Shown: positions 4,747-21,124, numbered from the stretch's first letter. The stretch: 64,000 nt of DNA from Candidatus Campbellbacteria bacterium GW2011_OD1_34_28 (GCA_001029775.1 CP011215.1:32148-96147); one strand, 5' to 3'. Notes: generated by a model from the sequence alone, not told the origin. Program-made: numbers and translations.

Positions 4747-4751
4747 TGTCT

Positions 4752-4930
4752 CTAAATAAGAAAACCCGCTCCTCGATTTGAGAGAGCTGGTTTTCGCCTG
4801 GGCCACCTGAGGCATTATCCCTAGTATATAACTAGAGTGGGTATGCTCTGGGTACTGCACCAAGGTGCAATATCCACACGAGCCCCCTCATAATGCTTTA
4901 GTAGGAAAAATACTCTGCAGGTGACCTTCT
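4752..4930 (-). ncRNA. Candidate structured small RNA, identity unknown (6S- or SRP-like in size), with its own promoter and terminator
   Basis: A 170-nt block much GC-richer than its flanks. The closing helix GGUCACCUG (from plus 4918-4926) / CAGGUGGCC (from plus 4801-4809) is complete only on the minus strand (one U-G wobble; C-A mismatch on plus). Internal helices GCAUUAU/AUAAUGC and UGCAC-CUUG-GUGCA. TTGCAA-17-TAATAT promoter-like hexamers sit just upstream on the minus strand. Downstream is a terminator hairpin gaaaacc...gggttttc followed by a U-run (plus 4757-4796). Confidence 0.35.
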
Positions 4931-4946
4931 AATATTATTACATCTT

Positions 4947-4997
4947 AAAAAAAACTTGCAATAACAATATTGCAAGTTTTTTTATTTTTTTATTACT
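4947..4997. terminator. Bidirectional rho-independent terminator downstream of ndk
   Basis: A8-cttgcaata-acaa-tattgcaag-T8: perfect 9-bp stem with A and T runs on both sides. Confidence 0.65.
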
Positions 4998-5064
4998 CCT
5001 TAAAAAAGCTTTATTATTCAAGGGTTCCGTCTATGTTTACATCGTAAAGAATTTGTTCTTGAAA

Positions 5065-5643
5065 TTAAATTCTTGTTCTATAATGTATTTTTTCTTCAGG
5101 TCTTTCATAAGAATGAATTTCATCTGGACTAAACCAAAAATCAATTTCTTTTTGTGCTTCAGTCGGGTTATCAGTTGCATGAATTATTGTTAGATTTGGT
5201 CTATTTGATTTATTCGCAAGTTCAAATGTGTCATGTGAATAGTCCCCTCTGATTGTTCCAGGAGCCGCTTCGTCAATATTTGTAGGACCTGTTAATCTTT
5301 TTACTGTCATAACAGCGTTATGTCCTTCAAGAACTACAGCGATAATCGGTGAAATTTGCATATCGTGAATCAAACCTTCAACAATATTTTTTCCTACGGG
5401 AATAGGGTCTGCATCTTCTGGCATTCCCAATTTTTTCTTATAAAGCTCTCCCTTTTCTCTAAACCATTTTTCATCTTTTTCGTAATGTTTTTCAAGAACC
5501 TCTCTAGAAGCCTGAATCATTTTAATTGCAGAGATTTTCAAACCAACCCTTTCAAATCTTTGAATAATTTCTCCAACAATACCTCTGGCGATAACATCTG
5601 GTTTTAATAAAACCAAAGTCTTTTCTTTTGTTAAGTGTTTCAT
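5065..5643 (-). CDS. ndk: Nucleoside diphosphate kinase, with an internal insertion and C-terminal extension
   Basis: 192 aa. LVLLKPDVIARGIVGEIIQRFERVGLKI and the catalytic-His region NLTIIHATDN match NDK. An insertion of about 40 aa (EKHYEKDEKWFREKGELYKKKLGMPEDADPIPVGKN) and a tail of about 30 aa are extra. Confidence 0.8.
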   Translation of the reverse strand: MKHLTKEKTLVLLKPDVIARGIVGEIIQRFERVGLKISAIKMIQASREVLEKHYEKDEKWFREKGELYKKKLGMPEDADPIPVGKNIVEGLIHDMQISPIIAVVLEGHNAVMTVKRLTGPTNIDEAAPGTIRGDYSHDTFELANKSNRPNLTIIHATDNPTEAQKEIDFWFSPDEIHSYERPEEKIHYRTRI

Positions 5644-5699
5644 TTTTGTTTTAATTTAACTAATAAATAAAATTTAATACCCCCAATCTTACCACAATA

Positions 5700-5905
5700 G
5701 GTCCATTTTTCAAAAAATTGTGGGTTGCTTCACTTCGTTCGCAAAGACGGATTTTGCGAAGCAAAATCCGTCACCCTCGTCGTCTTCGCGAGGCGAAGCC
5801 GAAGCGATCCACGTCGTTTTTTTTTGGATTCCTGCCTGTCGTGTTGTTGCTTTTCTTTCAGAAAAGAGGCGGGGCAAATTTCCCGCCTAAATCCTAAACC
5901 CTCTT
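5700..5905. repeat. GC-rich hairpin-dense intergenic repeat element, copy 1
   Basis: Perfect hairpin gacggattttgc-gaa-gcaaaatccgtc, the words cgtcttcgcgag and gaagcgatccacgtcg, and the terminal hairpin ggcggggcaaatttcccgcc followed by taaatcctaa. About 55% GC against a genome of about 33%. Confidence 0.6.
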
Positions 5906-5907
5906 AA

Positions 5908-6603
5908 TTATTTCTGCATCGTAACCACCCAAAATTTTCTTTTGAAAACCCTTCCGTTCACAGTAGAATAACTCTCTGTTTTTTTCATATCCAATATTTT
6001 AAAATATTTTGAATATATTTCTATAAAATTATCTTTTGAAAAAACTCTTTCTATCAAACCTGTTTCTGGCATTATATAAGTATCTTTTTCTCTAGCTGAG
6101 TTGTTTTTCAAAAGAAATTGAGCATTTTTATCTCCATCTTTACACAAAGCTCTCACAAAAAATATTCCGTCTTTTCTCAAAACACGATTTACTTCTGACA
6201 GATAAATTTCTCTTTCTGCTTCATCCAAAGAGTTAGAACTTGTGATATCAATAACCAGATCAAAATATTCATTTTCAAACGAATATTTTTCTCCAATACT
6301 TTGCTTTATATATTTAGCACCAAGATTTCCAGCTCTTGTTTTTGCTGTATCAATCGCAGTTTGAGAGATTTCCATACCAAAAACATCCGCCTGTTTTTCG
6401 GCTAAATAATTTGCATTTCTCCCAGTCCCCGATCCTAAATCCAAAACCCTTAACCCCTCAAAACTTACAGGGACTCGGTCCCTGTAAGTTTTGAGGTATG
6501 TTTTATACCATTTTAAAAATTTCAAAAAAACAGACTGCGGTTTGTCGTGTCCTGTTACCAATTTTGGATTTCTGTATTCTTTTTCCCAAATATCTTTTTG
6601 CAT
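5908..6603 (-). CDS. Class I SAM-dependent methyltransferase
   Basis: 231 aa. The VLDLGSGTGRNANYLAEK motif I is followed by DVFGMEIS and DLVID. Confidence 0.75.
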   Translation of the reverse strand: MQKDIWEKEYRNPKLVTGHDKPQSVFLKFLKWYKTYLKTYRDRVPVSFEGLRVLDLGSGTGRNANYLAEKQADVFGMEISQTAIDTAKTRAGNLGAKYIKQSIGEKYSFENEYFDLVIDITSSNSLDEAEREIYLSEVNRVLRKDGIFFVRALCKDGDKNAQFLLKNNSAREKDTYIMPETGLIERVFSKDNFIEIYSKYFKILDMKKTESYSTVNGRVFKRKFWVVTMQK

Positions 6604-6720
6604 AAAATAAATATACCAATATACGAATTATGCGAATAAAACGAATAAATACAAATATTAGGAATCGTTATTTGTAACGATTTGTATAATTCGTATCATT
6701 CGTATATTAGTATGTTTATC

Positions 6721-7485
6721 TTAAATTTTTGTCAGAATTTCGGGGTCACCATCTGTGATTAAAATAGTGTGCTCAAAATGTGCACTTCTACTGCCATCCG
6801 CAGTTCTAAAAGTATATCCATCTTTATCTAAAACAACATGTTTCTTTCCTTCATTCAACATCGGTTCAAGAGCGAGAACCATTCCCTTTTGCAATTTTGT
6901 CCCTTGTCCTTTCTTGCCAACATTTGCTATGTATGGCTCTTCATGGACATTTTTTCCAACGCCGTGTCCACCCAACTCATCTATTACACCAAATTTAAAA
7001 GGTTTAACAAAATTTTCAATAGCATATCCAATATCGCCTGTCTTGTTTCCTGCCCTAGCCTGTTTAATTCCTTCATACAAAGACTGTTTTGTTACCTCAA
7101 TCAATTTTTTTGCTTCTTTATCTATTTCTCCCACTCCAACCGTCATTGCCATATCGGTAACTAATCCGTTGTGAACAAGCCCTAAATCAATTCCCACAAT
7201 ATCACCTTCTTGTAACACCTTTTCATTACCCGATGAAATGCCGTGCACGACTTCATCGTTTACTGACACACACAAAGTAGCAGGATATGGAAATCTGGCC
7301 CCTTCCGGTTTGTAATGCAAAAAAGCAGGCTTGTCACCGCCTTCTCTAATCAACTGTTCGGCATAATCGTTTAAATCATTAATTACCGCCCCCGGAATAA
7401 CCTTTTTTGCTGTTTCATTCAAAATAAAGGCAAGTCTCTTGCCTCCTTCTCGTAATATATTTATTTCACTTTCTGTATATATCAT
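6721..7485 (-). CDS. map: Methionine aminopeptidase type I
   Basis: Conserved MetAP-I metal-ligand blocks (VVHGI, GDIVGIDLG, HGVGKNVHEEP, LALEPM, HFEHT). The start is moved to MIYTESEINILREG (ATG at 7483-7485) because the longer ORF would read through the upstream terminator hairpin. Confidence 0.88.
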   Translation of the reverse strand: MIYTESEINILREGGKRLAFILNETAKKVIPGAVINDLNDYAEQLIREGGDKPAFLHYKPEGARFPYPATLCVSVNDEVVHGISSGNEKVLQEGDIVGIDLGLVHNGLVTDMAMTVGVGEIDKEAKKLIEVTKQSLYEGIKQARAGNKTGDIGYAIENFVKPFKFGVIDELGGHGVGKNVHEEPYIANVGKKGQGTKLQKGMVLALEPMLNEGKKHVVLDKDGYTFRTADGSRSAHFEHTILITDGDPEILTKI

Positions 7486-7503
7486 TATTTTGAGTATACA
7501 AGT

Positions 7504-7530
7504 AAAAAAGTCTTGAAACAAGACTTTTTT
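7504..7530. terminator. Bidirectional rho-independent terminator
   Basis: aaaaaagtcttg-aaac-caagactttttt, a perfect palindrome. Confidence 0.65.
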
Positions 7531-7661
7531 AAACAACAAACTACAATCACCAAATCACAAACAAATTCAAAATAACAAATACGAAATCCGAGACAAGTGT
7601 TTATTATTTTGAAATTAAAATTTGTAATTTGTTTAGAATTTAAAGTTTAAAAAATCTGATT

Positions 7662-8255
7662 TTACAATCCGATTTTTTCAATCATTTCTTGATAAACTTG
7701 CTCTATCGTTTGTTCCCCATTTACCTCGACAAATTTATATGTTGAATTATTTTTTAAATATTCAATTGCTGGCAAAACATCTCTATCAAACCAATCCAAT
7801 CTTTTCTTTACCTGTTCCTCATCGTCATCATGTCTTCCCCTGCCCAACAATCTTGCTGTTGACCATTCACGAGAAACATTCATATATACAACAGTTGGAT
7901 CTTCTCTTTTATAAAATCTGATTGCAGAATCGAGTACTTCAGCTTCGTTCAAACGACGAGGTGTCCCGTCCAGAATAAGATGTTCACTGCCTTTCATTTC
8001 CTCAATCAGATCTTTTCCCCAAAGATACACAACCAAAAATTCTGGCTGTAATTCTCCTTTTTCAACAATTTCTCTTGAAAGTCTATTTGAATAACTATCA
8101 TTTTCCCAAAATTTTCTTAAAACATTACCTGTACTAATATAATTGATCCCGATTTCAGGATTTTTTTCTTGTAATTTTTTTGATAACAAATCAATCTGTG
8201 TTCCTTTTCCACAACCAGACCGACCGATAAAAATGTAGGTTTTTTGTGCAGACAT
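7662..8255 (-). CDS. adk: Adenylate kinase family (nucleoside monophosphate kinase)
   Basis: P-loop YIFIGRSGCGKGTQ, ILDGTPRRLNEAEVL, and the LID-region RGRHDDDEEQVKKRL. The start is set at MSAQKTY (ATG at 8253-8255). The 85 upstream codons of the track ORF lie in the GC-rich repeat and are rejected. Confidence 0.78.
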   Translation of the reverse strand: MSAQKTYIFIGRSGCGKGTQIDLLSKKLQEKNPEIGINYISTGNVLRKFWENDSYSNRLSREIVEKGELQPEFLVVYLWGKDLIEEMKGSEHLILDGTPRRLNEAEVLDSAIRFYKREDPTVVYMNVSREWSTARLLGRGRHDDDEEQVKKRLDWFDRDVLPAIEYLKNNSTYKFVEVNGEQTIEQVYQEMIEKIGL

Positions 8256-8289
8256 ACTAATATACAAATTATACGAATAATACTCTGAA

Positions 8290-8600
8290 TTATACTTGAT
8301 TTTCTGAAGCCCTGCCTCTTCTCTTCCAGGAAAGAGGCAGGGATTCACGAAGTTATTTTGGATTGCTTTGTCGTTTCGTTTCACTCCACTCCTCACAAAG
8401 ACGACGAAGTTGTCGTCTTTGTGAGGAGCTTGCGACGAAGCAATCCACGCCGTCCGTTCGTCGTTCTGGATCGCTTCGCTACCGCTCGCGAAGACGAAGT
8501 TTTGCTCCACAAAACTTCGTGACGAATTTCCGCAGGAAATTCGTCTTTGCGAGCGAAGCGAAGCAATCCACGTCGTTCATTTGTCTTCGTTACTATCGAC
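8290..8600. repeat. GC-rich hairpin-dense intergenic repeat element, copy 2
   Basis: Hairpins ccctgcctct..agaggcaggg, the 17-bp stem ctcctcacaaagacgac-gaagtt-gtcgtctttgtgaggag, gaagttttg..caaaacttc and gacgaatttcc-gcag-ggaaattcgtc, plus the family words gcgaagcaatccacgtcg and tctttgcgag. Confidence 0.6.
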
Positions 8601-11600
8601 TATAAACTATCGACTGTCGTCGTAGCTGTCGGTTCTACCACAGGATCTGTTGTCGTTGCTGGTTCTGTTGTTACAGCTGTTGAATCTTCAACAAGTACTG
8701 TTCTTGTACTTGTTGAAGTATTTGTTCCATCAAACGCTGTGTAAGTAACTGTGTATTCTCCGGCGATTGTTGTGTCTACTATATCTAGGTCGTGAGTATC
8801 TACTATTAGAGAGTTTCCTTGGTAGTCTACTGCTGTAGCGCCTAGATCAATATAGTTGCTGTTTATTTCTACTACGGCTGGGTTGTTGCCTGTGATTGTT
8901 ATAACTGGTGCGATAGCATTCTGGATTGCTTCGCTATCGTTCGCAGAGACGGAAGATGTGTTAGAAGAAGTATCTGTGTTTTCCAACAAACTTCTCAACT
9001 GATCTTTGTTTATACACACATCATCGATACAAATTTCTTGTCTCGCTTTTATTTTATCCGCAACCAATTCTGTAACCGAAGCCAAAACATTTGAAATTCT
9101 TTCATCCAATGTGTTTATCAATTCTTGCATTGCTTTTACAATCACCGAAGTCAATTTTGGATAATCAAGGTTCATGATAGTACCTTTGTCGTCGTGTCCG
9201 ATGACTTCGGGAATTAACAAGTCAACTTCTTCTGCGATGAATCCGATTTGAGTAGATGATGAATTAATAAAGTCTGATTTCCAATTGAATGATACAGGGC
9301 GTAATTGGAGTACTGTGTCTAGACCGTATGTTAGATCGTTTATGTTTGTTTTGAATCTCTCTGATGATGCTCCACAGGCGGTTGTTGATGTGGCTAGTTC
9401 TCCGCTGGTTGATATACAAGCGTAATAACCTGTTCCGTCGTTGGTTAGACCGGTGAAAGCAGCTGTTCCGTTTACGGAAAGAGTTCTCCATGGGGTGGTG
9501 GTGCCGATGCCGACGTTGCCACCGAAATAGTTCGTGCCACCTTGCGAATATATAGAATAATTATTTGAAGATCCTTTATTTGGAGTTTCTATGTATAGCT
9601 GATATTGATTGGCAAGGACACTGGCGCCTCCATTTTCATAATTATTAAGATAGATATTGTAAGCATTCGTCACATTACCAGACGATCCCCAAACGCCAGA
9701 ACCGGCTTCAGAATATATTCCATAGATATTGCCAATGTTAGCGGTGGATCCGGACATAGCTCCGCCATAAGCTGCTACTTTCATACCGTATATATTTGAT
9801 ATATTTGATACTCCTGCATTTTCCAATCCTGAAGCGGCAAAACCACTTGATTCTGTTCCAATTATAGTTGTCACATCTCCATTTCCATAGAAAGTTCCCT
9901 TGTTAACGGATCCCTTAATTTCTTGGGTATCGCCGGAACCATAAACTCTGGCATCAGAAAATGCTCCATAAACCCAATTAATATTACCATTTCCATCATG
10001 ATATGCTGTTGTTCTAATTCCTTGCATTCCTGAACTAGAAAAATTCGTATTATCTCCAAAAGGTGTTGAAATAGCATTATTAATACCAATACCTTGTCCT
10101 TCTTTTTCAATGCTCAGCTTCCCCAACGGACTCATCGTCCCCACACCCACATTCCCATTATTCAACACAGCAAACAAAGAAGTGGTTGCACTCGCTGTAG
10201 AGCTGGCGATATTGAACAAAGTTGTGTTTGTTTCTCCGTTGTTTGCGTGGATTGATAGTTTTGCAAAAGGTGAGGTGGTGCCGATGCCTATTTTGCCACT
10301 TGATAGAGTCGTTCCCGTTCCATTTATTCCTGTTCCAAAAATTAAGTTTCCAATGTTTAATTGATTTGAGGCGGTGGCAGAAGGAGCATCAACATCGTAA
10401 CCTATAACAAGGTTGTTTGATCCTGTTGTTAAATTATTACCTGCTTGGTATCCAAGAAAAATATTATTTGAACCAGAAACCAATGAACCTGCATTGTATC
10501 CAATACCAACACTCCTAGAAGGTGATCCCCCATAAGCCAAGGAATTTATGCCAATAGCGACATTATAACTTCCTGTACTGTTGTTATATAATACTGAATC
10601 TCCTATTCCAACGTTAGAAGCTCCTGTAGTATTTGAATAAAGTGACATATCTCCCACAGCGCTGTTCAATCCGCCTGTTGTATTTGAAACCAAAGATTCT
10701 GTTCCGAGAGCAATATTATAACCTCCGGAAATATTTGCATACAAAGACATTGATCCGCTTGCTATGTTACGAGAACCACCAATATTTGAAAATAAAGCAT
10801 AAGATCCTGAGGCTATATTATTATTTCCAGTCGTATTTGAATAAAGGGATGTGTATCCGCTGGCAACATTGTTGTATCCTTCGGTATTGAAATGCAAAGA
10901 CTTGTACCCAAAAGAAGCATTGAGATAGCCTGTCGTATTTGAATATAGCGACTGATATCCTACCGCTGCGTTTCTATAACCAGAAGTATTTGAACGCAAT
11001 GACTGATAACCAATACCAACATTATAATTATCTGTTAGATCATCACTTCTTCCAGCCTCATATCCAAAATAAGTAGAACCACCCAAACCGGTTTGAGAAA
11101 CCCTTCCATACACGGATAACTTTGCTCCTGCGTTTTCTGAGGTTGTTGTTCCAATACTAACTCTATTATTTACTGAATCAATAACCAGAGTATCTGTATC
11201 AAAAACAGCACTGTCTATTGTCAAATTTGAAATATTTCCGTTAGTAAAGTTTAATTCTGTTCCTGAAACATTTGAGGTGCTAATGTTTGAATCATAAATT
11301 TCAACCCCACCCAAATTATCTATATCGTTGGTAGCAGAGATCACTTGATATGTGTTGGTGATTTGAGCATTTGTATTTGATGAGAGTTTGTAGATTTCAC
11401 TTCTTAATTCGTTGTTTAGTTTTTGAAGATCTTCCAGTGTGACGCCTGGTGTTTGGATTACTCTTTCTACTACGGTTTCTTTTATTATTTCTCTGATTGG
11501 GTTTGTAACGATGGTGGTGGTCTTTGGGGTTGCGGGAACTGAAGGAACATTTTCCGAGATCTCACCTCTGTCCGCTTCGCTCTCCGAGGAAAGACCTCGG

Positions 11601-11869
11601 GAAATTTCGTCTTCGTTTGTGCTATTGGTTGTTAGCTGTCCACTGTCAGCTGTTTCTTCAGCGGAGCTGAAAAAACCCGAGATTGTTCTGTATACATAAA
11701 CAGCCGTCTTTTCAACGGTGTTCAAATTGGAAATATTTTGAACTTCACTCGCTTCAACTTTTTGTAGAAAAAGTAAATTATCATCATTTGCTAGAAAACC
11801 ACCTCCCAACATCAACATAACGGCAAATACGATAAAAAACTGTTTTATAAATTTATCAATAAGATTCAT
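8600..11869 (-). CDS. Giant secreted surface protein 1 (1089 aa), built like a phage tail fibre. Signal anchor, block shared with giant 2, 14-15-aa xNTAxGYxSLxSNTTG repeat array, intramolecular-chaperone (Peptidase S74) domain, coiled coil, DUF5011-type Ig domain, Thr/Pro-rich tail.
   Basis: N-terminal signal MNLIDKFIKQFFIVFAVMLMLGGG. About 20 tandem repeats of the type NAAVGYQSLYSNTTGYLNASFGYKSL. ASSERFKTNINDLTYGLDTVLQLRPVSFNWKSD...IGFIAEEVDLLIPEVI matches the tailspike C-terminal intramolecular-chaperone consensus. ITITGNNPAVVEINSNYIDLGATAVDYQGNSLIVDT...GEYTVTYTAFDG is DUF5011-like. Confidence 0.8.
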   Translation of the reverse strand: MNLIDKFIKQFFIVFAVMLMLGGGFLANDDNLLFLQKVEASEVQNISNLNTVEKTAVYVYRTISGFFSSAEETADSGQLTTNSTNEDEISRGLSSESEADRGEISENVPSVPATPKTTTIVTNPIREIIKETVVERVIQTPGVTLEDLQKLNNELRSEIYKLSSNTNAQITNTYQVISATNDIDNLGGVEIYDSNISTSNVSGTELNFTNGNISNLTIDSAVFDTDTLVIDSVNNRVSIGTTTSENAGAKLSVYGRVSQTGLGGSTYFGYEAGRSDDLTDNYNVGIGYQSLRSNTSGYRNAAVGYQSLYSNTTGYLNASFGYKSLHFNTEGYNNVASGYTSLYSNTTGNNNIASGSYALFSNIGGSRNIASGSMSLYANISGGYNIALGTESLVSNTTGGLNSAVGDMSLYSNTTGASNVGIGDSVLYNNSTGSYNVAIGINSLAYGGSPSRSVGIGYNAGSLVSGSNNIFLGYQAGNNLTTGSNNLVIGYDVDAPSATASNQLNIGNLIFGTGINGTGTTLSSGKIGIGTTSPFAKLSIHANNGETNTTLFNIASSTASATTSLFAVLNNGNVGVGTMSPLGKLSIEKEGQGIGINNAISTPFGDNTNFSSSGMQGIRTTAYHDGNGNINWVYGAFSDARVYGSGDTQEIKGSVNKGTFYGNGDVTTIIGTESSGFAASGLENAGVSNISNIYGMKVAAYGGAMSGSTANIGNIYGIYSEAGSGVWGSSGNVTNAYNIYLNNYENGGASVLANQYQLYIETPNKGSSNNYSIYSQGGTNYFGGNVGIGTTTPWRTLSVNGTAAFTGLTNDGTGYYACISTSGELATSTTACGASSERFKTNINDLTYGLDTVLQLRPVSFNWKSDFINSSSTQIGFIAEEVDLLIPEVIGHDDKGTIMNLDYPKLTSVIVKAMQELINTLDERISNVLASVTELVADKIKARQEICIDDVCINKDQLRSLLENTDTSSNTSSVSANDSEAIQNAIAPVITITGNNPAVVEINSNYIDLGATAVDYQGNSLIVDTHDLDIVDTTIAGEYTVTYTAFDGTNTSTSTRTVLVEDSTAVTTEPATTTDPVVEPTATTTVDSL

Positions 11870-11947
11870 TAATATTTAAAGTTATTATTTAATATTATTA
11901 TAGTAATAATAACACAATAGATAATGAAAAATATTATAAAGACTGTG

Positions 11948-12035
11948 GATTTCTTTCTATTTATATAGACCTGTCAATTTTTTAACCAAAAAATCTGACA
12001 AAGACTTTAAATATTCATCGTCATAAACAAAGACA
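11948..12035. repeat. Duplicated fragment of the obg 3' end and its downstream sequence
   Basis: About 85 bp (tatatagacctgtcaattttttaaccaaaaaatctgacaaagactttaaatattcatcgtcataaaca) nearly identical to 18905-18990 (the obg stop-codon region). Lies between giant genes 1 and 2. Confidence 0.7.
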
Positions 12036-12076
12036 ACATTCTCACAGAAAAAGAGGATTTTCGTCTGCATTATTCC

Positions 12077-15000
12077 CTATTGACTATCAACTACCGGTTC
12101 CGTCGTTGTAGCTACAGAATCTAGACTATCGACTATTGCCTCTTCAACAAGTACTATTCTCGTACTTGTTGAAGTCAGTGTTCCATCAAACGCTGTGTAA
12201 GTAACTGTGTATTCTCCTGCTGTTGTTGTGTCTACTGTATCTGCGTCTATTGTATCTACTATTAGAGAGTTTCCTTGATAGTCTACTGCTGTAGCGCCTA
12301 GATCAATATAGTTGCTGTTTATTTCTACTACGGCTGGGTTGTTGCCTGTGATTGTTATTGTGGGAGGAGTGGTGTTTGAAGGTTCTGCTGTTGGCTGTTG
12401 GCTGTTGGCTGTATTAGTGTTATCAACACCCTCTAAAGCATTCAATCTAGCTTCCAATTCATTCAATCTATTTTCAAGACCAGAAACTTTTGCGATCAAT
12501 TCTTGTGTCTTGTTCCAAATTTCCTTAATCGCATTTACCAAAACCGAAGTCAGCTTTGGATAATCAAGGTTCATGATAGTACCTTTGTCGTCGTGTCCGA
12601 TAACTTCGGGAATTAACAAGTCAACTTCTTCTGCGATGAATCCGATTTGAGTAGATGATGAATTAATAAAGTCTGATTTCCAGTTGAAAGATACAGGGCG
12701 TAGTTGAAGGACTGTGTCTAGACCGTATGTTAGATCGTTGATGTTTGTTTTAAATCTTTCTGACGATGCTCCACAAGCGGTTGTTGATGTGGCTAGTTCT
12801 CCTGTTCCAGCGTTGGCACAGACATAATAGCCAGTGCCGTTGTTAGCAAGACTTTGAAACGCTACTGTTCCATCTACGGTTAGTTTGTAATTTGGAGTAG
12901 TTGAACCGATTCCGATGTTGCCGGTTGAGATGGTTGTGCCGTTTCCATCTATACCTGTCCCAAAGATTAGATTTCCAATTGTCATTGTGTTATTACTTGT
13001 TGCCGTTGGTGAATCAATGTTGTAACCAATAACTATGTTGTTGTCTCCCGTTGTTAAGGTCTCTCCAGCCTGATAGCCAAGTAATATATTATTATCTCCT
13101 GTCGTTAAATTAACCCCAGATCGATACCCAATAATAACACCCCCCTGATTGTAGGATACTGTGCTAACACCTTGACCGGCTTGATAACCGATCGCAACAG
13201 TAGAAGTAGCTGATCCATTATATCGATTTGCCTGAGTACCTATTGCCACATTTGAAGAACCTGTTCGATTACTACGAAGAGATTCAGACCCAATTGAAGT
13301 ATTGTAAGTTCCTGTAGTATTTAAAGACAGCGAATCATATCCGAGAGCGCTATTATAATTTCCTGTGGTGTTATTAGTTAAAGAAAAACCGGCGGCCATA
13401 TTATAAGAACCTGTTGTATTTGCACCCATGCTTAAACCTCCAACGGCTGTATTATAAATTCCTGTTGTATTGACATCCAAGGCACCAGCTCCAACCGCGG
13501 TATTATAATAACCTGTAGTATTGGCTTTCAATGCTTGATAGCCTACAGCAGTATTACTACTACTTGTTGTTGCTAAATAAAGTGCTTCGTAACCCAAAGC
13601 GGTGTTATTTAGAGCACCACTCAACAAAGCGTTTCCTGCTCCAATACCGACAGAAACAGAACGACTGGTTGAAGAGGCAAAAAGTATTTTGCTTCCCCCA
13701 ATAGAATATCCTCCATTTGTTGTATCTGTAGAATTAAATGCTGTTGCAGAAATCGATGAGGTTGCTGTTAAACTATTGACGGTTAAATCACCAGATATCC
13801 ACGCACTACCTTCTACACTCAACTTTCTGAAAGGTGAGGTGGTGCCGATGCCCACATTCCCCTTCAAAGCCGTAGTTGTGATACTGTCATTTCCAAGAAC
13901 AACAGAGTTGCTTCCTACTCCTGTGGCATCGTAACCGATTACAATTTCGTTTTGGTCATTGTCAGCAAGGGCTTTGGTGTTGTAGCCTAAGAATGTATTG
14001 TAGTCTCCTGTTGTGTTACCTGTTGAGCCGTTGGCAATGTAGCGACCTGCATTGTATCCAAAGGCTATATTATAATGACCTGTGGAGTTAGCATAGAGAG
14101 AAGAATAACCAACTGCAGTGTTATACATACCCGTAGAGTTGGCATAAAGAGAAGTGTACCCACTTGCAGTGTTGTATCTGCCTGAAGTGTTTGAAAAGAG
14201 AGATTCATAACCACTTGCAGTGTTGTGATAACCGGAGGTGTTGGACTGAAGAGAAGAATATCCAATCGCGGTGTTGTGATAACCGGTGTTGTTGTTATAC
14301 ATAGAGCTACCACCATAAGCAGTATTACGGTAACCTGTGGTATTAAGGTATAAAGTAAAAATTCCACTTGCGGTGTTACCATAACCAGTATTATTGGTGA
14401 AAAGAGCATTAACACCATTTGCAGTGTTAAAGTAACCTAGAGTATTTGCATAAAGAGCACGGTAACCTGTTGCGGTGTTATAACTGCCATGACTTGCGCT
14501 TGTCGCCGTGCTACCCATCGTAAGATTTCCCGCTTCTTCTCCCACAAAAGTATTCTGTCCTGTTGTCGTCACAGTTCCGTTGTTTCCATAATTGAAATTA
14601 TGAATGAAACTTGTTCCGTTTTTTGAGATTACCCCGTATTGATTTGTATTAGTGGTGTTGTCCAAATTCAAATTACCTTGATAGATATCGAGTTTTGCAG
14701 AAGGAGTCATTGTTCCTATTCCTGTATACCCAGAAGGGCCAGCAAAAAAAGAAATGAAATCTTGAACTCCATCGTTTGTTCCTATTAAAACACTATTGGC
14801 AATATTATTATTTAAAGAACCTCCTCCTGATCCACTATAGCCAAAACCTATAGTAATTGATTTCGTCGCCGAAGCCTTCGCTGTGCCTCCTAAAACAACT
14901 GAATACTGACCGGCAGCTGTTGCCCCTCCTTTTCCAAAAACAGAAGAATACTGCCCACTAGCAATACCTGAACCAACAACAATAGACCCTTCACCTGTTG

Positions 15001-18000
15001 CACTACTACTTTCTCCTAATGCTATGGATTTCCATCCACTTGCAGAACCATTAATCATGGAAACATTAACGCCACCAGAAGAGTTAACCTTAAATCCATT
15101 AGACACTTCTAGTTTGGCTGTCGGACTCGCCGTCCCAATGCCCACATTCCCCGTACTCCTATCCACCACCAATTTGTTTGTTCCCACAGCAAAACCACCA
15201 GCAAAAGTAGAAGTTGCTGTTGTTGAAGTTGCGTTGAAATAGTCGGCAACGACATCTCCGACAACGGAAAGTTTTGCGAAAGGTGAGGTGGTGCCGATGC
15301 CGACATTTCCTCCTAAAAACACCCCTGCATAATTGTTGATTGCTCCTGTAGAAGCATTCACCAATAACCCGTAGGCATTTGTTACTACGGCTTGGCTTGT
15401 GCTCACTGGTTTAGTTGGCACAAGAATACTATAAGCATTTGTAATAGAAACATTTGCACTTGTGCTTTTCCAAGGCCATGCGGTGACTAAACTTGCTGCT
15501 TCTGTAACCACTTGATTTGCAGTAGTGCTATACAGTTGCATATTACCCAATTTAGTTCCGTATATTGTATCGTAAGTCGTTGGATCAGAACCAGATAGAG
15601 TTACAAGATGATCACGCAATGTTATTCCCGTAACGCCCGAAGATGTCAATGTGGTGACGGGATTAATATCAAGAAATGATGCAGGGGCGGTAGTATTGAT
15701 TCCTAAATATCCAGATGAATTTATTCTTGCTCTTTCAAATGTATTAGCTGAACTACTTGTTGTCCAAAAACTAAGGTATCCCTGTGCATTTCCACCGGTC
15801 GAATTTTCCTTTGCTCCTTTTATTGAACCAAAAGTCCAAAAACCAGTTGAACCGGAGTATACACCACCCAATCCGATGCTTCCCCCTTTATTAATCGCGT
15901 TTGTATCAGTAGACATTACAAGCATATTACCGGCATATTGGTCATTGCTACCCAATACTAAATCGCTTCCACGTATATCAAGCGTACGCTGTGGGTTTAT
16001 CGTACCAAGGCCCACAACAGGTGTCGCGAGGTTAATATTTGAAGTCAAGCCATTAACAACCAATCCTGAAAACTGAGGAGAATCAGTCGTTCGCAGACTC
16101 TGGCTCAATGAGACATTGCCACCACTAATTGAGAGATTTCTGACAGTTTCATTTTTAATCCAAGTGGTCCCTATATATATTGAATTTGCTAAAGCAATAT
16201 ACCCGGTCGGAGTTAGATGCAAATAATCAGCGAGAGCATACGAGGCAAGAAGGGTGTCAGGATTGGTTGGATCTTCGAGCGCAGAATAAGCATCTATCCT
16301 ATAGTCAACATCGGATGCCATGTTAAGTATCCAATTATTAACATCTTCTAAAACTACCTGACGAGCTTCCGTCCATGAAGTGCTAGTTTTAAACGGAGTA
16401 ATCGTAACAGCCACAACCTTAGATCCGTTGGCGTTAGCCGCAGTGTACATAGCTTGTAAATTACTTTCAATAGTGGCGGCAGATGCGTTTGCTGCTATAT
16501 CATTTATACCTCCCAGGATAATTACATATTCAGCATCGTCAACTACTACATCACCAGAAAAACGCGCTGCCATTTGTGTAGTAGTATTGCCTCCAACGCC
16601 TTTGCTATTCACATTCCATAATGCCCCCAGTAAATCAGCCAATGCACTTCCATAGTTTGTTAAGCTATCACCTATAGCATATACTTGATGAGTTTGAAGA
16701 ATGTTCACTTTATTCAGAGAAATATCTCCGTTTACATCAAACTTCGCTCCCGGACTCTCCGTCCCCACCCCCACATTCCCTGTAGAATAATCAACAACAA
16801 ATTTGTTTGTTCCAACAGCCAAACCTCCTGCAAATGTAGAAGTTGCTGTGGCTGATGTTGCTGTAAAGTAAGGGGCAGAAATTGAACTTGTGGCAGTAAT
16901 TGAATTAGCGGTTAAATCACCACTGATCCACGCATTACCTTCTACACTCAACTTTCTGAAAGGTGAAGTCGTCCCAATCCCAACATTTCCACTTGCTCTC
17001 CAAACATCTGTTCCGTTGGATGTCCAATTACCAACGGCTGAACCTGATAAAAGATTACCACCCCAGTATAAATCATTGGAGATGTTGTAAAGTCTGTCGG
17101 TTGTGATTGATGGAGCTGATATTGGTGCAAGGTATGTTGCTCCGTTTACTGAAAGAGTATCTGAAGGTGTTGTTGATCCGATGCCTACACGGTTGTTGAT
17201 TGAATCGATGTAAAGAGTGTCTGTGTCAAAGATTGTGTCTCCTGATACGGTAAGAGTGTTTAGAGTGGTGTTGCCTGTTACAGTTAGATTGCCAGAGTAT
17301 GTTCCACTGGTTGCAGAAATAGGGCCACCGTATGTAGAGGTAGCTGTGCCTGTGACAGTTAGGTTTTGAATTGTTCCGTTGGTAAAGCTTAGTTCTGTTC
17401 CTGAGACATTTGAGGAACTGATGTTTGAGTCGGTGATTGTGACACTACCCAGATTGTCGATGTTGTTAGTAGCAGAGATTACTTGGTAGGTGTTGGTGAT
17501 TTGAGCATTTGTATTTGAAGAGAGTTTGTAGATTTCACTTCTCAGTTCGTTGTTTAGTTTTTGAAGATCTTCCAGTGTGATGCCGGATGTTTGGATTACT
17601 CTTTCTACAACAACTTCTTTGATTATTTCTCTGATTGGGTTTGTAACGATGGTGGTGGTCTTTGGAGTTGCGGGAACTGAAGGAACATTTTCCGAGATCT
17701 CGCCTCTGTCCGCTTCGCTCTCCGAGGAAAGACCTCGAGAAATTTCGTCTTCGTTTGTGCTATTGGTTGTTAGCTGTCCGCTGTCAGCTTCGTCAACGCT
17801 ATCAGCTGTTGGCTGTAAGCTATCAGCTTCGTTACTAAACAAATTATTAACAAACTTATACCAAACAATCGCAAACTGTTCCACAGGACTTGCTGTTTCG
17901 TAGACTGCTAAAGCTAGGTTGTTTACACCCGTCTTCGCGAACGAAGTGAAGCGACCTGCCTCGCCGGCAGGCAGGTCCATGTCGTCCGTTTTCTGGATTG

Positions 18001-18541
18001 CTTCGTCATAAACTCCTCGCAAAGACGACGAACCAGAGACAATTTTGTTTTTTAATCCATCTAAATAATCTAAAAAGTCTTGTGTATATGTATCTACTGT
18101 TTTTACATTTTTACTGTCTTTTATTTCTTTGATGGGAGAATTGTCATTGCTATCAAGAATTTGTGTTTTGAACAAATCTCTTTTTTCTGCACCAACTTTG
18201 TATGTTATTTCTTTTGTGTTTTTTACCGCAGAAAAAACAGCCTCCCCTGTTTTGTTGAGTTGGTTTAATATGTCTCCTGAAAAGTAACCTGCTCCGATTA
18301 AGAGAATCGCTAAAACAGCCGTTGACAATGCTCTCACTGGCAAAATCATCGGCTTGTTTGTTTTGTTTTTATATTCAAAAAGTTTTTCTAATTCAACAAA
18401 ATATTCCCCTTCTACCTTTGTAAAATCTATCTTTTCTTCACGGCACAGGTCTTTAATATGTTCTTCATCCAATTCTATGATTTTTGTCGCTTTTTTTGTT
18501 GAAAGATACCTTTTGCCATTTAAAAATATCTCACTTTGCAT
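12077..18541 (-). CDS. Giant surface protein 2 (about 2150 aa). N-terminal HTH-like cytoplasmic segment plus TM anchor, block shared with giant 1, repeat arrays, embedded SGNH/GDSL esterase domain, tail-fibre NTA-GY repeats, Peptidase S74 intramolecular chaperone domain, coiled coil, DUF5011 Ig domain.
   Basis: Track ORF is 12077..18589; the preferred start is MQSEIFLNGKRYLS (18541). TM segment LSTAVLAILLIGAGYF. A 110-aa block (ADSGQLTTNSTNEDEISRGL...NAQITNTYQVISATN) is nearly identical to giant 1. The SGNH motifs are AIGDSLT, GGNTT, GINDI and DYLHLT. The C-terminal 230 aa are nearly identical to giant 1. Confidence 0.8.
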   Translation of the reverse strand: MQSEIFLNGKRYLSTKKATKIIELDEEHIKDLCREEKIDFTKVEGEYFVELEKLFEYKNKTNKPMILPVRALSTAVLAILLIGAGYFSGDILNQLNKTGEAVFSAVKNTKEITYKVGAEKRDLFKTQILDSNDNSPIKEIKDSKNVKTVDTYTQDFLDYLDGLKNKIVSGSSSLRGVYDEAIQKTDDMDLPAGEAGRFTSFAKTGVNNLALAVYETASPVEQFAIVWYKFVNNLFSNEADSLQPTADSVDEADSGQLTTNSTNEDEISRGLSSESEADRGEISENVPSVPATPKTTTIVTNPIREIIKEVVVERVIQTSGITLEDLQKLNNELRSEIYKLSSNTNAQITNTYQVISATNNIDNLGSVTITDSNISSSNVSGTELSFTNGTIQNLTVTGTATSTYGGPISATSGTYSGNLTVTGNTTLNTLTVSGDTIFDTDTLYIDSINNRVGIGSTTPSDTLSVNGATYLAPISAPSITTDRLYNISNDLYWGGNLLSGSAVGNWTSNGTDVWRASGNVGIGTTSPFRKLSVEGNAWISGDLTANSITATSSISAPYFTATSATATSTFAGGLAVGTNKFVVDYSTGNVGVGTESPGAKFDVNGDISLNKVNILQTHQVYAIGDSLTNYGSALADLLGALWNVNSKGVGGNTTTQMAARFSGDVVVDDAEYVIILGGINDIAANASAATIESNLQAMYTAANANGSKVVAVTITPFKTSTSWTEARQVVLEDVNNWILNMASDVDYRIDAYSALEDPTNPDTLLASYALADYLHLTPTGYIALANSIYIGTTWIKNETVRNLSISGGNVSLSQSLRTTDSPQFSGLVVNGLTSNINLATPVVGLGTINPQRTLDIRGSDLVLGSNDQYAGNMLVMSTDTNAINKGGSIGLGGVYSGSTGFWTFGSIKGAKENSTGGNAQGYLSFWTTSSSANTFERARINSSGYLGINTTAPASFLDINPVTTLTSSGVTGITLRDHLVTLSGSDPTTYDTIYGTKLGNMQLYSTTANQVVTEAASLVTAWPWKSTSANVSITNAYSILVPTKPVSTSQAVVTNAYGLLVNASTGAINNYAGVFLGGNVGIGTTSPFAKLSVVGDVVADYFNATSTTATSTFAGGFAVGTNKLVVDRSTGNVGIGTASPTAKLEVSNGFKVNSSGGVNVSMINGSASGWKSIALGESSSATGEGSIVVGSGIASGQYSSVFGKGGATAAGQYSVVLGGTAKASATKSITIGFGYSGSGGGSLNNNIANSVLIGTNDGVQDFISFFAGPSGYTGIGTMTPSAKLDIYQGNLNLDNTTNTNQYGVISKNGTSFIHNFNYGNNGTVTTTGQNTFVGEEAGNLTMGSTATSASHGSYNTATGYRALYANTLGYFNTANGVNALFTNNTGYGNTASGIFTLYLNTTGYRNTAYGGSSMYNNNTGYHNTAIGYSSLQSNTSGYHNTASGYESLFSNTSGRYNTASGYTSLYANSTGMYNTAVGYSSLYANSTGHYNIAFGYNAGRYIANGSTGNTTGDYNTFLGYNTKALADNDQNEIVIGYDATGVGSNSVVLGNDSITTTALKGNVGIGTTSPFRKLSVEGSAWISGDLTVNSLTATSSISATAFNSTDTTNGGYSIGGSKILFASSTSRSVSVGIGAGNALLSGALNNTALGYEALYLATTSSSNTAVGYQALKANTTGYYNTAVGAGALDVNTTGIYNTAVGGLSMGANTTGSYNMAAGFSLTNNTTGNYNSALGYDSLSLNTTGTYNTSIGSESLRSNRTGSSNVAIGTQANRYNGSATSTVAIGYQAGQGVSTVSYNQGGVIIGYRSGVNLTTGDNNILLGYQAGETLTTGDNNIVIGYNIDSPTATSNNTMTIGNLIFGTGIDGNGTTISTGNIGIGSTTPNYKLTVDGTVAFQSLANNGTGYYVCANAGTGELATSTTACGASSERFKTNINDLTYGLDTVLQLRPVSFNWKSDFINSSSTQIGFIAEEVDLLIPEVIGHDDKGTIMNLDYPKLTSVLVNAIKEIWNKTQELIAKVSGLENRLNELEARLNALEGVDNTNTANSQQPTAEPSNTTPPTITITGNNPAVVEINSNYIDLGATAVDYQGNSLIVDTIDADTVDTTTAGEYTVTYTAFDGTLTSTSTRIVLVEEAIVDSLDSVATTTEPVVDSQ
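17925..18045. repeat. GC-rich repeat element, copy 3, embedded in-frame inside giant gene 2
   Basis: cttcgcgaacgaagtgaagcgacctgcctcgccggcaggcaggtc...ggattgcttcg...tcgcaaagacgacgaa shares the gacctgcc..ggcaggtc hairpin and family words with copy 4. It is translated as ...DDMDLPAGEAGRFTSFAKTG... with no stop. Confidence 0.55.
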
Positions 18542-18639
18542 ATTTATCTTTAGCCAAATTATACCAATAATTAAGGCTAATTTAAACAAAAAAGGGTGCG
18601 TAAGTGTTGATAAATAAATTGAAGCTTATAGCTCTATAG

Positions 18640-18895
18640 CACAGACGAAAACGAAGCTGACAGCGGACAGTCAATAGCTAACAGCACGGATGATGTGGAT
18701 TGCTTCGCTACGCTCGCAATGACGACGAAGGTGACGGAATTTCGTTTTGCGAAATTCCGTCTTCGCGAGGAGTGAAGCGACCTGCCTCGCCGACAGGCAG
18801 GTCGTTTCACCTTCGGTTCGCAAAGACGGACAAAGGCGGGAAATTTGCTTCGCAAATTTCCCGCCTAAATTCTAATTTCTAATTTCTAAATTCTC
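18640..18895. repeat. GC-rich hairpin-dense intergenic repeat element, copy 4
   Basis: Hairpins gacggaatttcg-tttt-gcgaaattccgtc and gacctgcct-cgccgac-aggcaggtc, the 12-bp stem ggcgggaaattt..aaatttcccgcc, the words ggattgcttcgc, cttcgcgagg and tcgcaaagacgg, and a tail ctaattt x3. Confidence 0.6.
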
Positions 18896-18899
18896 GTCT

Positions 18900-19874
18900 T
18901 TATTTATATAGCTCTGTCAATTTTTTAACCAAAAAATCTGACAAAGACTTTAAAGATTCATCGTCATAAACAGAAACAGAGACAACATCTTCACAATATT
19001 TTCTCAATTTTTCTTCCGCCTTTTTTGTTGTCTTGCTGTCAACCAAATCAGTCTTTGTCAAAATAATAATCTCGGATTTTTCAGCCAATTCTGGATCAAA
19101 TTTTTTCAATTCATTTTTAATTGTTTTATATGCTTTTACAACATCTTCATTTTCAAGAGAAATACAGTGCAAAAGAAGTTTTGTCCTTTTTATATGTCTT
19201 AAAAACTTGTGTCCCAAACCTTTTCCCTCTGATGCCCCTTCTATAAGCCCCGGAATATCCGCCAAAATATATTTGTACAATTCTCCCAAATTTGGTTCCA
19301 ATGTTGTAAAAGGATAAGCTCCCACTTTTGCATTTGCACGAGTTAATTCGTTAAGCAAAGAAGATTTTCCAGCACTTGGCAAACCGATAAGACCAGCGTC
19401 CGCAATCAATTCTAGCTCAATAAAAAATTCTGCGTCTTCGCCTTTTTTCCCCTCCGTAGATTCTACTGGGCTAGTATTTTTTGAACCCTTAAAATTTTCA
19501 TTTCCCAAACCGCCGTGACCTCCTTTCAAAACCAAAATATTCTCTCCCTCCTTAATCAATTCAAATTTTTCATCAGTTATCAAATTTTTTACAATAGAAC
19601 CAATAGGCAAATCAATAAACAAATCATCACCATTTTTTCCATGCATACTATTTTTCTCTCCATTTCCTCCGTTTTCCGCAGTAAACTTTTTATTTTTTGT
19701 GTAACGAGAAAGAACCTCTATATCTCTAATTGCACGAATATAGACATCGGCACCTTTTCCGCCATTGCCCCCAGCAGGACCCATAAGAGGTTTGTATTTT
19801 TCTCTTCTCCATCTAACAACACCGTCTCCCCCTTTTCCGGCTCTGGCATAAATTTTTAGTTCATCTATTAACAT
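18900..19874 (-). CDS. obg: GTPase Obg/CgtA
   Basis: The Obg fold Gly-rich N-domain (KIYARAGKGGDGVVRWRREKY...GGNGGKGADVYI) followed by a G-domain with GLPSAGKSSLLN, DIPGLIEGA and LTKTDL. The start is chosen at MLIDELKIY (19874); the track ORF extends 12 codons further. Confidence 0.85.
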   Translation of the reverse strand: MLIDELKIYARAGKGGDGVVRWRREKYKPLMGPAGGNGGKGADVYIRAIRDIEVLSRYTKNKKFTAENGGNGEKNSMHGKNGDDLFIDLPIGSIVKNLITDEKFELIKEGENILVLKGGHGGLGNENFKGSKNTSPVESTEGKKGEDAEFFIELELIADAGLIGLPSAGKSSLLNELTRANAKVGAYPFTTLEPNLGELYKYILADIPGLIEGASEGKGLGHKFLRHIKRTKLLLHCISLENEDVVKAYKTIKNELKKFDPELAEKSEIIILTKTDLVDSKTTKKAEEKLRKYCEDVVSVSVYDDESLKSLSDFLVKKLTELYK

Positions 19875-19918: not shown

Positions 19919-21118
19919 TTATTTATATTTAAGAGCAGTCAAAGGATTAAGCCTTGATGCTTTTATAGAAGGGTAAACTCCTGTGAGCAATCCGATTATT
20001 GTTGAAAAGACAATAATGAAGACAACAAACCAAACTGGTTGATAAAACAGGTCCAATGCCCTTCCACCAAAAGTTTTAGCCAAAATATTGACACCCAAGT
20101 TTGCAATTTCTCCTCCCAAATATCCGACAATAAGACCTCCCAAACCTCCCAAAAAACCCATCAAAATAGATTCAAACAAAAAGAGTTGAACAATATCTTT
20201 TCTTGTTATTCCAATAGCTCTCATAATACCGATTTCATTAATACGCTCCAACAAAGCGATTGTCATTGTGTTAAACATTCCAATAGCAGAAACAAGCAAA
20301 GCGATCAAACCAAACAAGGCCAAGATAATTTGGACTATTTTAAATATTTTATTTGCCTGATCAATAGTATCTGACAAAGATGAAACCAAAAATCCTCTTT
20401 CTATAATACTACTCCTGATACTCTCTATGCTTTCGTTATTTATAGACTTGACCTTCAAAAAATCATATTCAGTCAAACCAAGATCACTTATTGTTTTTTC
20501 AGGAATATAAATAAAATTTGTATCCTGACTCTCTACGACACCAACCACTTTGTATGAATCTTCCCTCTTGAATATTTGATCTTCAAAAGAACCATCTTCT
20601 GTTTCTTTTGAGACGAAGATTGTTAAAAATACTTCTCTTCCTATGATTTCTTGCGGTGTCATATCAAAAAGCTGTGCGCCTGCCGAAGAAATTACGACAC
20701 TGTGCTCATTTTCATCTTCAAAAAATTTCCCTTTCATAGGAAGGATTCCGTCCAGACGAAAAAAAGATGGCGTAACAGAATATACAAGTCCGTCTCCTGT
20801 GAATTCACCTATTGTGATGTGTGCAGATAGATTTACAACAGGACTTACTTCTACTACTCCTGTAATAGATCTGATCTCTTCCAGATCTCTTTGTGTTATT
20901 GTTATCAGATCAGTTGATCCCGCAGAAACATCCAAGCTCAAAAGAGAATCTACTGTCGTAATTTGACCCAAAATTACATTTTGAATACCATAACCCAAGG
21001 ACACAAGAAACAACACGGCTCCAATACCGACGCTTACTCCGAGTATGGTAAGAAATGTTCTAAGAGGTCTAGTCTTGAACATTCTTGTTGATAGTGAAAA
21101 TGTATCAATAATTCTCAT
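19919..21118 (-). CDS. ABC transporter permease, FtsX-like (MacB/LolCE family)
   Basis: 399 aa. N-terminal TM, large periplasmic domain, then three C-terminal TM segments containing the FtsX signature region GIMRAIGITRKDIVQLFLFESILMG. Confidence 0.75.
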   Translation of the reverse strand: MRIIDTFSLSTRMFKTRPLRTFLTILGVSVGIGAVLFLVSLGYGIQNVILGQITTVDSLLSLDVSAGSTDLITITQRDLEEIRSITGVVEVSPVVNLSAHITIGEFTGDGLVYSVTPSFFRLDGILPMKGKFFEDENEHSVVISSAGAQLFDMTPQEIIGREVFLTIFVSKETEDGSFEDQIFKREDSYKVVGVVESQDTNFIYIPEKTISDLGLTEYDFLKVKSINNESIESIRSSIIERGFLVSSLSDTIDQANKIFKIVQIILALFGLIALLVSAIGMFNTMTIALLERINEIGIMRAIGITRKDIVQLFLFESILMGFLGGLGGLIVGYLGGEIANLGVNILAKTFGGRALDLFYQPVWFVVFIIVFSTIIGLLTGVYPSIKASRLNPLTALKYK

Positions 21119-21124
21119 AATTTG

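Follow-up and report, generated by a model that had tools for sequence, protein, structure and literature searches.

The window analysed here, a 64,000-nucleotide stretch of the genome of Candidatus Campbellbacteria bacterium GW2011_OD1_34_28 (GCA_001029775.1, CP011215.1:32148-96147), contains two long open reading frames (ORFs), g1 and g2, that lie head to tail on the minus strand. With a probability of roughly 0.6, they encode Sec-exported, probably homotrimeric S74-type surface fibres and are old paralogues that have been juxtaposed, with their shared modules converted and the rest exchanged. The analysis documents the domain identities, catalytic motifs, synteny, mosaic pattern and conversion signatures of the pair. 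The locus had first been singled out in a prediction made from the sequence alone, which described a tandem pair of giant tail-fibre-like proteins in a reduced-genome bacterium. Candidatus Campbellbacteria is indeed an ultra-small, reduced-genome lineage of the Patescibacteria or Candidate Phyla Radiation (CPR), and both same-strand ORFs lie where they had been placed.

The first gene, g1 (8600..11869), encodes 1089 amino acids (aa), and its sequence is identical to the NCBI TPA entry DCP88_03770 (Candidatus Campbellbacteria). The full g2 ORF (12077-18589, 2170 aa) opens with a TTG at 18589. However, the true start of g2 is likely to be the ATG at 18541, giving a gene at 12077..18541 and a protein of 2154 aa. 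A promoter-like site (18558..18586; TTTAAA, a 17-nt spacer and a TG-extended TATAAT) sits between the TTG and the ATG. The same promoter-ATG layout is found in P0124, the orthologue of g2 in a related genome, where the region upstream of the gene is kept. All features of the locus given below are on the minus strand.

Shared blocks and mosaic structure

A blastn comparison of g1 with g2 returned exactly three shared DNA blocks (E 1e-88 to 1e-164), rather than the two that had been predicted. The first, the N block (11226..11651 in g1 and 17365..17789 in g2; 426 bp at 89.7%), encodes a heptad-like stalk preceded by an acidic linker rich in Ser and Thr, and corresponds to the predicted N-proximal block, with a protein identity of 97% (g1 aa 74-180 vs g2 aa 268-374). 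The second covers the S74 intramolecular chaperone domain, or ICD (9129..9403 and 12528..12802; 275 bp at 93.5%), and the third an Ig-like domain of the Bact_surface_Ig-like/DUF5011 type (8677..8902 and 12133..12358; 226 bp at 91.6%). The C-terminal 230-256 aa had been described as one conserved block. Instead, the ICD (98-99% protein identity) and the Ig-like domain (88-90%) are alike, whereas the linker between them (17-37%) and the tail that follows (27-48%) are not.

The similarity of the blocks is far above chance, yet their DNA is not identical, with synonymous divergence (dS) of 0.19-0.40, and the DNA-level identity claimed in the original prediction does not hold. That claim had leaned on two antisense ORFs said to be the same; these encode 86 and 108 aa, and are alike over about 70 residues, with 4 differences, before diverging. 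As genes they were rejected, since they are merely the reverse frame of the N block. In the alignments of g1 with g2, at both the DNA and the protein level, the three blocks of 90-93% are accompanied by linkers, tails and middles that are unrelated.

The segments outside the blocks have relatives of their own. The g1 linker cassette (8915..9139) is of a helix plus ICIDDVCINKDQL hairpin type that is also found in P0002 and P0010, its nearest relatives, and the g2 cassette (12371..12538) is of a coiled-coil VSGLENRLNELEARL type shared with P0031 and with P0003, its nearest relative. For the segment ahead of the S74 domain, the nearest relative is P0010 for g1 and P0005 for g2, and for the C-terminal tail of g1 it is P0003. 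A g1-specific central domain (9530..10102, aa 590-780) lacks a Pfam match and shares 88-100% identity with P0002, the fibre gene of the sister genome. Because each module has a different nearest relative, the sequences clearly point to g1 and g2 as mosaics whose modules have been shuffled among paralogues and strains, in line with the mosaic build that had been proposed. The prediction had likened this build to host-range cassette switching. A programmed mechanism of that kind was rejected, as no silent cassettes or invertible segments were seen, and what the sequences show is recombination over evolutionary and population time.

Origin of the pair and probable gene conversion

The sister metagenome-assembled genome (MAG), Paceibacterota STC_102, preserves the same gene order (enolase ... 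VTT-obg-fibre-adk-map) and has only one fibre gene at this place, P0002, which combines the N-terminus and the central domain of g1 (the latter at 88-100%) with g2-like modules and unique segments. A g2-type gene, P0124, is found in STC_102 after rpoB-rpoC-dnaG-rpoD, at a contig end. It is 68% identical to g2 over g2 aa 17-540 and has the same promoter and the same N-terminus, a helix-turn-helix (HTH)-like domain followed by a transmembrane helix; DNA identity over the promoter and the N-terminal coding stretch is 86%. Given that the g2-type orthologue is linked to rpoD in the sister genome, the g1 and g2 types predate the split of the two genomes and the tandem layout is later.

A trace of how that layout arose may be preserved between the genes. 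A 78-bp copy of the 3' end of obg, including the stop codon (11958..12035), lies between the g2 stop and the conserved upstream region of g1, and shares 93.6% identity with the genuine 3' end of obg (18901..18978). The g2 segment of about 6.9 kb is thereby bracketed by 78-bp direct repeats, and the remnant is best read as the footprint of the rearrangement that placed g2 beside g1.

Comparisons within and between genomes bear on what happened afterwards. At the nucleotide level, the N blocks of g1 and g2 are 93% identical, but g2 and P0124 only 73%, and the sister genome's own pair 74%; the g2 N block shares 90% identity with the g1-type gene of the sister genome. As this block is nearer to g1-type genes than to its orthologue, it appears to have been overwritten by g1-type sequence. 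Between g1 and g2, the acidic linker reaches an identity of 100% in protein and 97% in DNA, as against 73% and 78% in the comparison with P0002. Ig blocks are 91% and 83% identical within genomes and 77-80% between them, and the S74 block is 93% identical within this genome and 84-90% between genomes. In addition, contig L001, assembled independently from a different sample, agrees with window positions 1-17188 except at five sites (99.97%). All five (11381, 11405, 11407, 11564 and 11600) lie in the N block of g1, are silent and carry the g2 base. Together, the excess of within-genome over orthologue identity, the g1-type N block in g2 and the five g2-base differences support gene conversion between g1 and g2. 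The prediction had offered recent duplication or gene conversion; the latter is favoured by the block identities and the L001 variants, and the former is opposed by the rpoD-linked orthologue.

C-terminal domains

The predicted pairing of a chaperone with an Ig-like domain is confirmed in both proteins by Peptidase_S74 (PF13884; 49.3 bits in g1 and 48.2 bits in g2, Pfam cut-off 22) and Bact_surface_Ig-like/DUF5011 (PF16403; 38.1 and 36 bits, cut-off 27). The catalytic Ser-x4-Lys (SDxxxK) pair is present as SSERFK, with the predicted nucleophile at Ser835 (codon 9365-9367) and its partner at Lys840 in g1, and at Ser1942 (codon 12764-12766) and Lys1947 in g2. Both residues are invariant across 24 aligned family C-termini. 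Searches of the PDB with single sequences gave only Ig-like and GDSL matches, and a profile was needed to detect the S74 and MAT relatives. The profile built from the 24-member alignment matches the phage fibres 8jov (1e-18) and 6f45 (2e-16), the ICA domain of MYRF (7dc3, 3e-14) and the Bdellovibrio mosaic adhesive trimer (MAT) fibres 8ond, 8ojn, 8ol4 and 8oml.

An AlphaFold2 model of g1 aa 780-1089, which like all models used here is of a monomer, contains a confident S74 domain, a long helix, a small Cys-hairpin and an Ig-like sandwich, with predicted local distance difference test (pLDDT) values >90 for the ICD and Ig parts. With this model, Foldseek retrieved the MyRF ICA domain (target-normalised TM-score 0.63) and the Ig-like domain of the chitinase MmChi60 (5e-5). 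Most family members stop 0-15 aa after S74, and the extension by a linker and an Ig-like domain mainly marks a Patescibacteria subgroup.

Shaft repeats, neck modules and esterase

The shaft repeat had been given a length of 14-15 aa, but the measured period is 17 residues (starts at 300, 317, 334 and on). The g1 array (10550..11023) has the pattern NxAxGYxSLxSNTTGxx, and g2 contains two arrays (14060..14530 and 13190..13606). The repeat regions match PHROG tail-spike and virion-structural families (E 1e-25 to 1e-57), and annotated tail-fibre genes from 88 phage records, including Roseobacter, Pelagibacter and Synechococcus phages, share 40-45% identity with the repeat. With the S74 profile matches to 8jov and 6f45, these results bear out the tail-fibre-like nature of the pair, for which an empty profile search had been named in advance as refuting. 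A model of the repeat region forms one coil per 17 residues.

The GNVGIGTTSP motif, noted beforehand in g2, occurs seven times there and three times in g1. When the neck module (GNVGIGTTSP...KLxV) was searched alone, only MAT fibres were matched in the PDB, with Bd2133 (8ond) at 1.5e-10. The motif resembles the published MAT capping-loop consensus, V-G-G/N-pi-x-x-P-x-x-x-L (PMC10769870), with a spacing that is off by one residue. A further g2 segment (14840..15043) resembles YadA_head repeats, scoring 32.8 bits against a cut-off of 25 when scanned alone.

The predicted esterase of g2 is also present, as an SGNH/GDSL domain (16199..16675, aa 639-797) that scores 73.7 bits against PF13472 (Pfam cut-off 32.9) and matches GDSL lipases in the PDB at 4e-10. 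Its motifs GDSL (aa 640-643), GGIND (693-697) and DYLH (788-791) are all preserved.

N-terminal anchors and a putative HTH domain

Each protein has a single hydrophobic segment, located at its N-terminus. In g1 this is a helix at aa 11-26 (11792..11839), which may be read as a signal anchor because it is the only membrane-like segment; by inspection, some 45 residues separate it from the acidic linker. In g2, a single transmembrane helix (18281..18349, ORF aa 81-103) is followed by a 165-aa spacer and preceded by a 64-residue, HTH_17-like domain (18362..18508) that is predicted to be cytoplasmic. A motif, E-x-F-A-[VI]-x-[WV]-Y-[RK]-x-[IV]-[SN]-x-[LF]-F, is found just outside the membrane helix in both proteins (g1 aa 52-70, g2 aa 235-253), as well as in P0003, P0010 and P0123, where it occurs twice.

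The match of g2 to HTH_17 (PF12728) covers profile positions 1-49 of 51, with 17.1 bits (E 0.007) against a cut-off of 27. Of six family N-termini that were aligned, five match HTH_17, the best at E 2e-8, and a search of the PDB with the HTH profile gave nothing significant. Fibres that open with an HTH_17/MerR-like domain and a single membrane helix form a subgroup consisting of g2, P0012, P0031, P0124, P0127 and P0133.

This architecture could be taken to suggest that g2-type fibres are envelope-spanning contact sensors, in which an extracellular esterase fibre of about 2,000 residues relays host binding or tension through the transmembrane helix to the HTH_17-like domain, altering DNA binding or expression, with the recognition modules re-sorted and the base and chaperone kept uniform by conversion. 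Such a function is doubtful and is put forward as speculation; if true, contact-sensor fibres would serve an episymbiont with few conventional signalling systems. A known protein of comparable build is eukaryotic MYRF (7dc3), which has an S74-type trimerising, self-cleaving ICA domain and which, like g2 with its predicted HTH-like domain, combines a DNA-binding domain, a membrane helix and S74 in one chain. In MYRF, however, S74 and the DNA-binding domain share one side of the membrane, and cleavage frees the latter. As S74 lies about 1,850 residues beyond the membrane helix in g2, its cleavage cannot free the HTH domain.

Proposed assembly and evolution

In the favoured explanation, each chain would be exported via Sec and kept in the cytoplasmic membrane by its single N-terminal helix. 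The shared N block, with its acidic linker and short heptad-like stalk, would form the base of the fibre, and the shaft would be made up of solenoid repeats of 17 residues and beta-helix modules capped by VGIGTxxP, together with lineage-specific inserts. One such insert, the SGNH esterase of g2, could deacetylate the surface glycan of a partner. By analogy with MAT and phage S74 proteins, the S74 chaperone would start trimer folding after the whole chain has been exported, and may then cut itself at Ser835 (g1) or Ser1942 (g2), leaving the linker and Ig-like domain released or loosely attached. The shaft, together with the esterase in g2, would be presented to the contacted surface. A rearrangement would have set g2 beside g1, leaving the 78-bp obg 3' repeats around g2, and short-tract gene conversion would later have homogenised the base, chaperone and Ig modules, while linkers, tails and central modules were exchanged among paralogues and strains.

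Several points weigh against this explanation. The trimeric state, surface exposure and self-cleavage are inferred, as are the esterase substrate and the host-attachment role. The S74 domain is not terminal in g1 and g2, where about 180 aa (linker, Ig-like domain and tail) follow it. The solenoid model of the repeats has a modest confidence (pLDDT 66) and is without a significant PDB match: the 17-residue-repeat profile matched no solved structure in the PDB, and Foldseek with the model returned nothing significant. A dS of 0.2-0.4 implies that conversion was incomplete and is not very recent, and part of the likeness is due to strong purifying selection (ICD identity is 98% in protein and 93% in DNA). 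The five variants that match the paralogue could in principle be an assembly or consensus artefact. Finally, full-length g2 is missing from the protein collection searched, and its 5' 1.4 kb is supported only indirectly, via colinearity with P0124.

Relation to known fibres

The components of g1 and g2, and the general kind of protein, are already known. Their closest characterised relatives are the MAT fibres of Bdellovibrio bacteriovorus, an S74 group that functions in prey recognition (PDB 8ond, 8ojn, 8ol4, 8oml and 8on4; Caulton et al. 2024, PMC10769870). Like these, g1 and g2 are cellular, surface-directed and fibre-like proteins of about 1,000 aa or more, with beta-helix modules that carry the capping loop 'xVVDxxGNVGIGTxxPTAKLxV', an S74 chaperone with a Ser/Lys pair, and a mosaic evolution; Bdellovibrio lives on or in other bacteria, and Campbellbacteria presumably do so too. 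[quoted passage not shown] S74 is terminal in MATs and is followed by a linker and an Ig-like domain in g1 and g2, in which both ends are conserved and the middle is variable. Long 17-residue arrays and an embedded SGNH esterase are not described for MATs, and no Patescibacteria entries were found in the supplementary text searched for the MAT paper (PMC10769870).

The phage fibres and tailspikes with a C-terminal chaperone (K1F endosialidase, T5 pb1, S16 gp37; PF13884) share with g1 and g2 the S74 domain and its catalytic pair, as well as the 17-residue shaft repeat, and PHROG tail families are matched too. They differ in that g1 and g2 are found outside any phage, with membrane anchors in place of virion adaptors and a chaperone that is not the last domain. 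Resemblance to the trimeric autotransporter adhesins of the YadA family extends to repetitive Gly/Asn/Ser/Thr-rich head-like repeats, including the g2 segment above the YadA_head threshold, and to folding that is thought to begin from the C-terminus in both. The orientation is reversed, as g1 and g2 are anchored by the N-terminus, and Pfam found no C-terminal YadA_anchor beta-barrel in either protein. An outer membrane is generally believed to be absent from CPR cells.

In the literature searched, no publication was found that connects CPR bacteria with S74 or tail-fibre-like proteins, and the combination seen here (a membrane anchor, probably in place of the MAT N-domain, an HTH-like domain, S74 followed by an Ig-like domain, an embedded esterase and a CPR organism) is not described there. 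The Campbellbacteria genome carries membrane-anchored relatives of two recognition systems, the prey fibres of Bdellovibrio and the host fibres of phages. The means by which ultra-small CPR/Patescibacteria find and hold their hosts are described as largely unknown in a 2024 preprint (PMC11623550) that deals with Saccharibacteria and their type IV pili. The pair provides concrete candidates for how CPR bacteria grip their hosts, and constructs for tests of binding, cleavage and esterase activity. The locus also gives a small-scale view of fibre-gene evolution, with base, chaperone and Ig modules apparently homogenised and middles, linkers and tails swapped.

Alternative explanations

Host attachment by the fibres is plausible by analogy and would be the most economical reading for a CPR bacterium; their homology to the MAT prey-recognition fibres (PMC10769870) strengthens it. 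Even so, the proteins may be real fibres that are not host adhesins, acting as an envelope or S-layer-like coat, a spacer, a glycan-remodelling scaffold or a phage decoy. This is the most credible of the alternatives, if still unlikely. The tips of the fibres are conserved, whereas receptor-binding proteins typically have variable ones, S-layer proteins and glycosidases contain similar Ig-like domains, and a large surface-glycan synthesis cluster is encoded nearby. An adhesive role is favoured by the function of the characterised relatives (PMC10769870), and by mosaic, fast-recombining middles with an embedded esterase, which are typical of recognition proteins. Among others, the relatives found in the genome scan described below include episymbiotic and predatory lineages (Saccharibacteria, Bdellovibrio and Omnitrophica), which indicates presence only and not enrichment.

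It is improbable that purifying selection alone, acting on the anchoring and folding modules without gene conversion, explains the near-identical blocks. Constraint is evident from a dN/dS of 0.07-0.13 in the N block and ICD at a dS of 0.2-0.4, from ICDs that are 92-97% identical in protein across genomes, and from Ser, Lys, Gly and Ala positions that are invariant family-wide. Against selection alone, DNA identity within the genome is higher than identity to orthologues in all three blocks, and a low-complexity acidic linker matches far better between g1 and g2 than with P0002. The N block of g2 is also g1-type and not g2-type, and every strain difference equals the base of the paralogue.

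Slightly less probable again, and largely refuted by the data, is a recent tandem duplication of one fibre gene whose middles then diverged. The two genes are adjacent on the same strand, the 78-bp obg 3' copy is what a duplication junction inside obg would leave between them, and the sister genome has a single gene at the locus. Against this, the promoter, HTH-transmembrane N-terminus and first 540 aa of g2 are colinear with the rpoD-linked P0124, so that the two types predate the split; the sequence just past the real obg stop is unrelated to the upstream region of g1; and the middles are unrelated rather than diverged.

Repeated blocks can also cause assembly chimeras, and contig L001 does end inside g2, 177 bp from the N block, several homologues are cut at contig ends, and an exact look-up of full-length g2 with either start (like that of P0005) gave no record in a collection of 15 billion proteins. 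A chimeric origin of the pair, or of the g2 architecture, is nonetheless very unlikely: L001 confirms g1, the obg remnant and 1,703 aa of g2 over window positions 1-17188 at 99.97%, g2 aa 17-540 run colinear with P0124 past the point where L001 breaks off, and the blocks differ by 7-10% with identical runs of <50 bp, for which no collapse is expected at k=141.

That the pair represents tail-fibre genes of a prophage, tailocin or phage remnant is scarcely credible: the PHROG tail-spike and virion matches, the phage-type S74 chaperone and the 88 phage records are countered by the lack of any other phage gene in the 64-kb window, by housekeeping flanks with synteny kept in the sister genome, by N-termini that are membrane anchors rather than virion-attachment domains, and by >6,500 relatives, of which the named minority comes from Patescibacteria, Bacteroidota and Proteobacteria, with many bacterial MAGs in the genome scan. 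g1 and g2 are cellular genes rather than prophage genes.

Distribution of the family

The relatives counted above are the database proteins that match g1 at E <1e-5. Database names among them include 'tail fiber domain-containing protein' (NCBI) and 'trimeric autotransporter adhesin' (JGI). A genome scan for the C-terminal module, queried with a single sequence, detected it in many Patescibacteria classes, Planctomycetes, Bdellovibrio and kin, Omnitrophica, Bacteroidota and others. A search with the N block found only three partial proteins. Contig ends truncate nearly all further paralogues with the N block or the C-terminal module (P0121 (DCP88_01715), P0122 and P0123 (DCZ46), L005 and L059), and one of them lies in the same NCBI assembly as g1. 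As a practical warning, fibre genes of this type break metagenome and short-read assemblies, and are often annotated as mere partial hypothetical proteins.

Genomic neighbourhood and repeated elements

The 64-kb window includes adk, map, obg, a MacB-type ABC exporter, enolase, a PEP-utilising enzyme, secA, murB and the glycan-synthesis cluster. NCBIfam gave no matches, and nothing was detected in the window by Rfam and tRNA scans. A third giant gene (22496-29182, 2228 aa), with FN3 and Pur_ac_phosph_N repeats, adjoins a MacB-type ABC ATPase and an FtsX permease (window 19919-29182). All three sit between VTT and obg and are lacking there in the sister genome, and they constitute a second surface-protein indel at the same locus as the fibres. 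The surface-glycan cluster (42580-63939) encodes a Wzy_C/O-antigen-ligase-like protein with TPR, a flippase, a NeuB sialic-acid-type synthase, a pyruvyl transferase, a glycerophosphotransferase and at least six GT4 glycosyltransferases. At 52-60 kb, the GC content drops to 28-29%.

A GC-rich palindromic element (GACCTGCC...GGCAGGTC...TCGCGAAGACGG) is found at 18757-18803, in the hairpin-rich intergenic region between obg and g2, and again at 17929-17977, in frame within g2. Identity between the copies is 92%, and the one within g2 is translated as 'DLPAGEAGRFTSFAKTG', a peptide that also occurs in P0121 and P0123. This in-frame element resembles the Rickettsia palindromic elements. Upstream of the sister g2-type gene, at L059 9700-9830, tandem GTAAGG(T/A)-type short repeats are found at the place that corresponds to the palindromic hairpins here. 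Just downstream of g1, a 123-bp composite hairpin (8467-8589) has a folding energy of -66.7 kcal/mol (z-score -9.2) and is probably a repeat resembling a miniature inverted-repeat transposable element, or a terminator. A related copy at 41246-41389 matches it in both orientations, and the sister genome (L005) has a similar element after its fibre gene.

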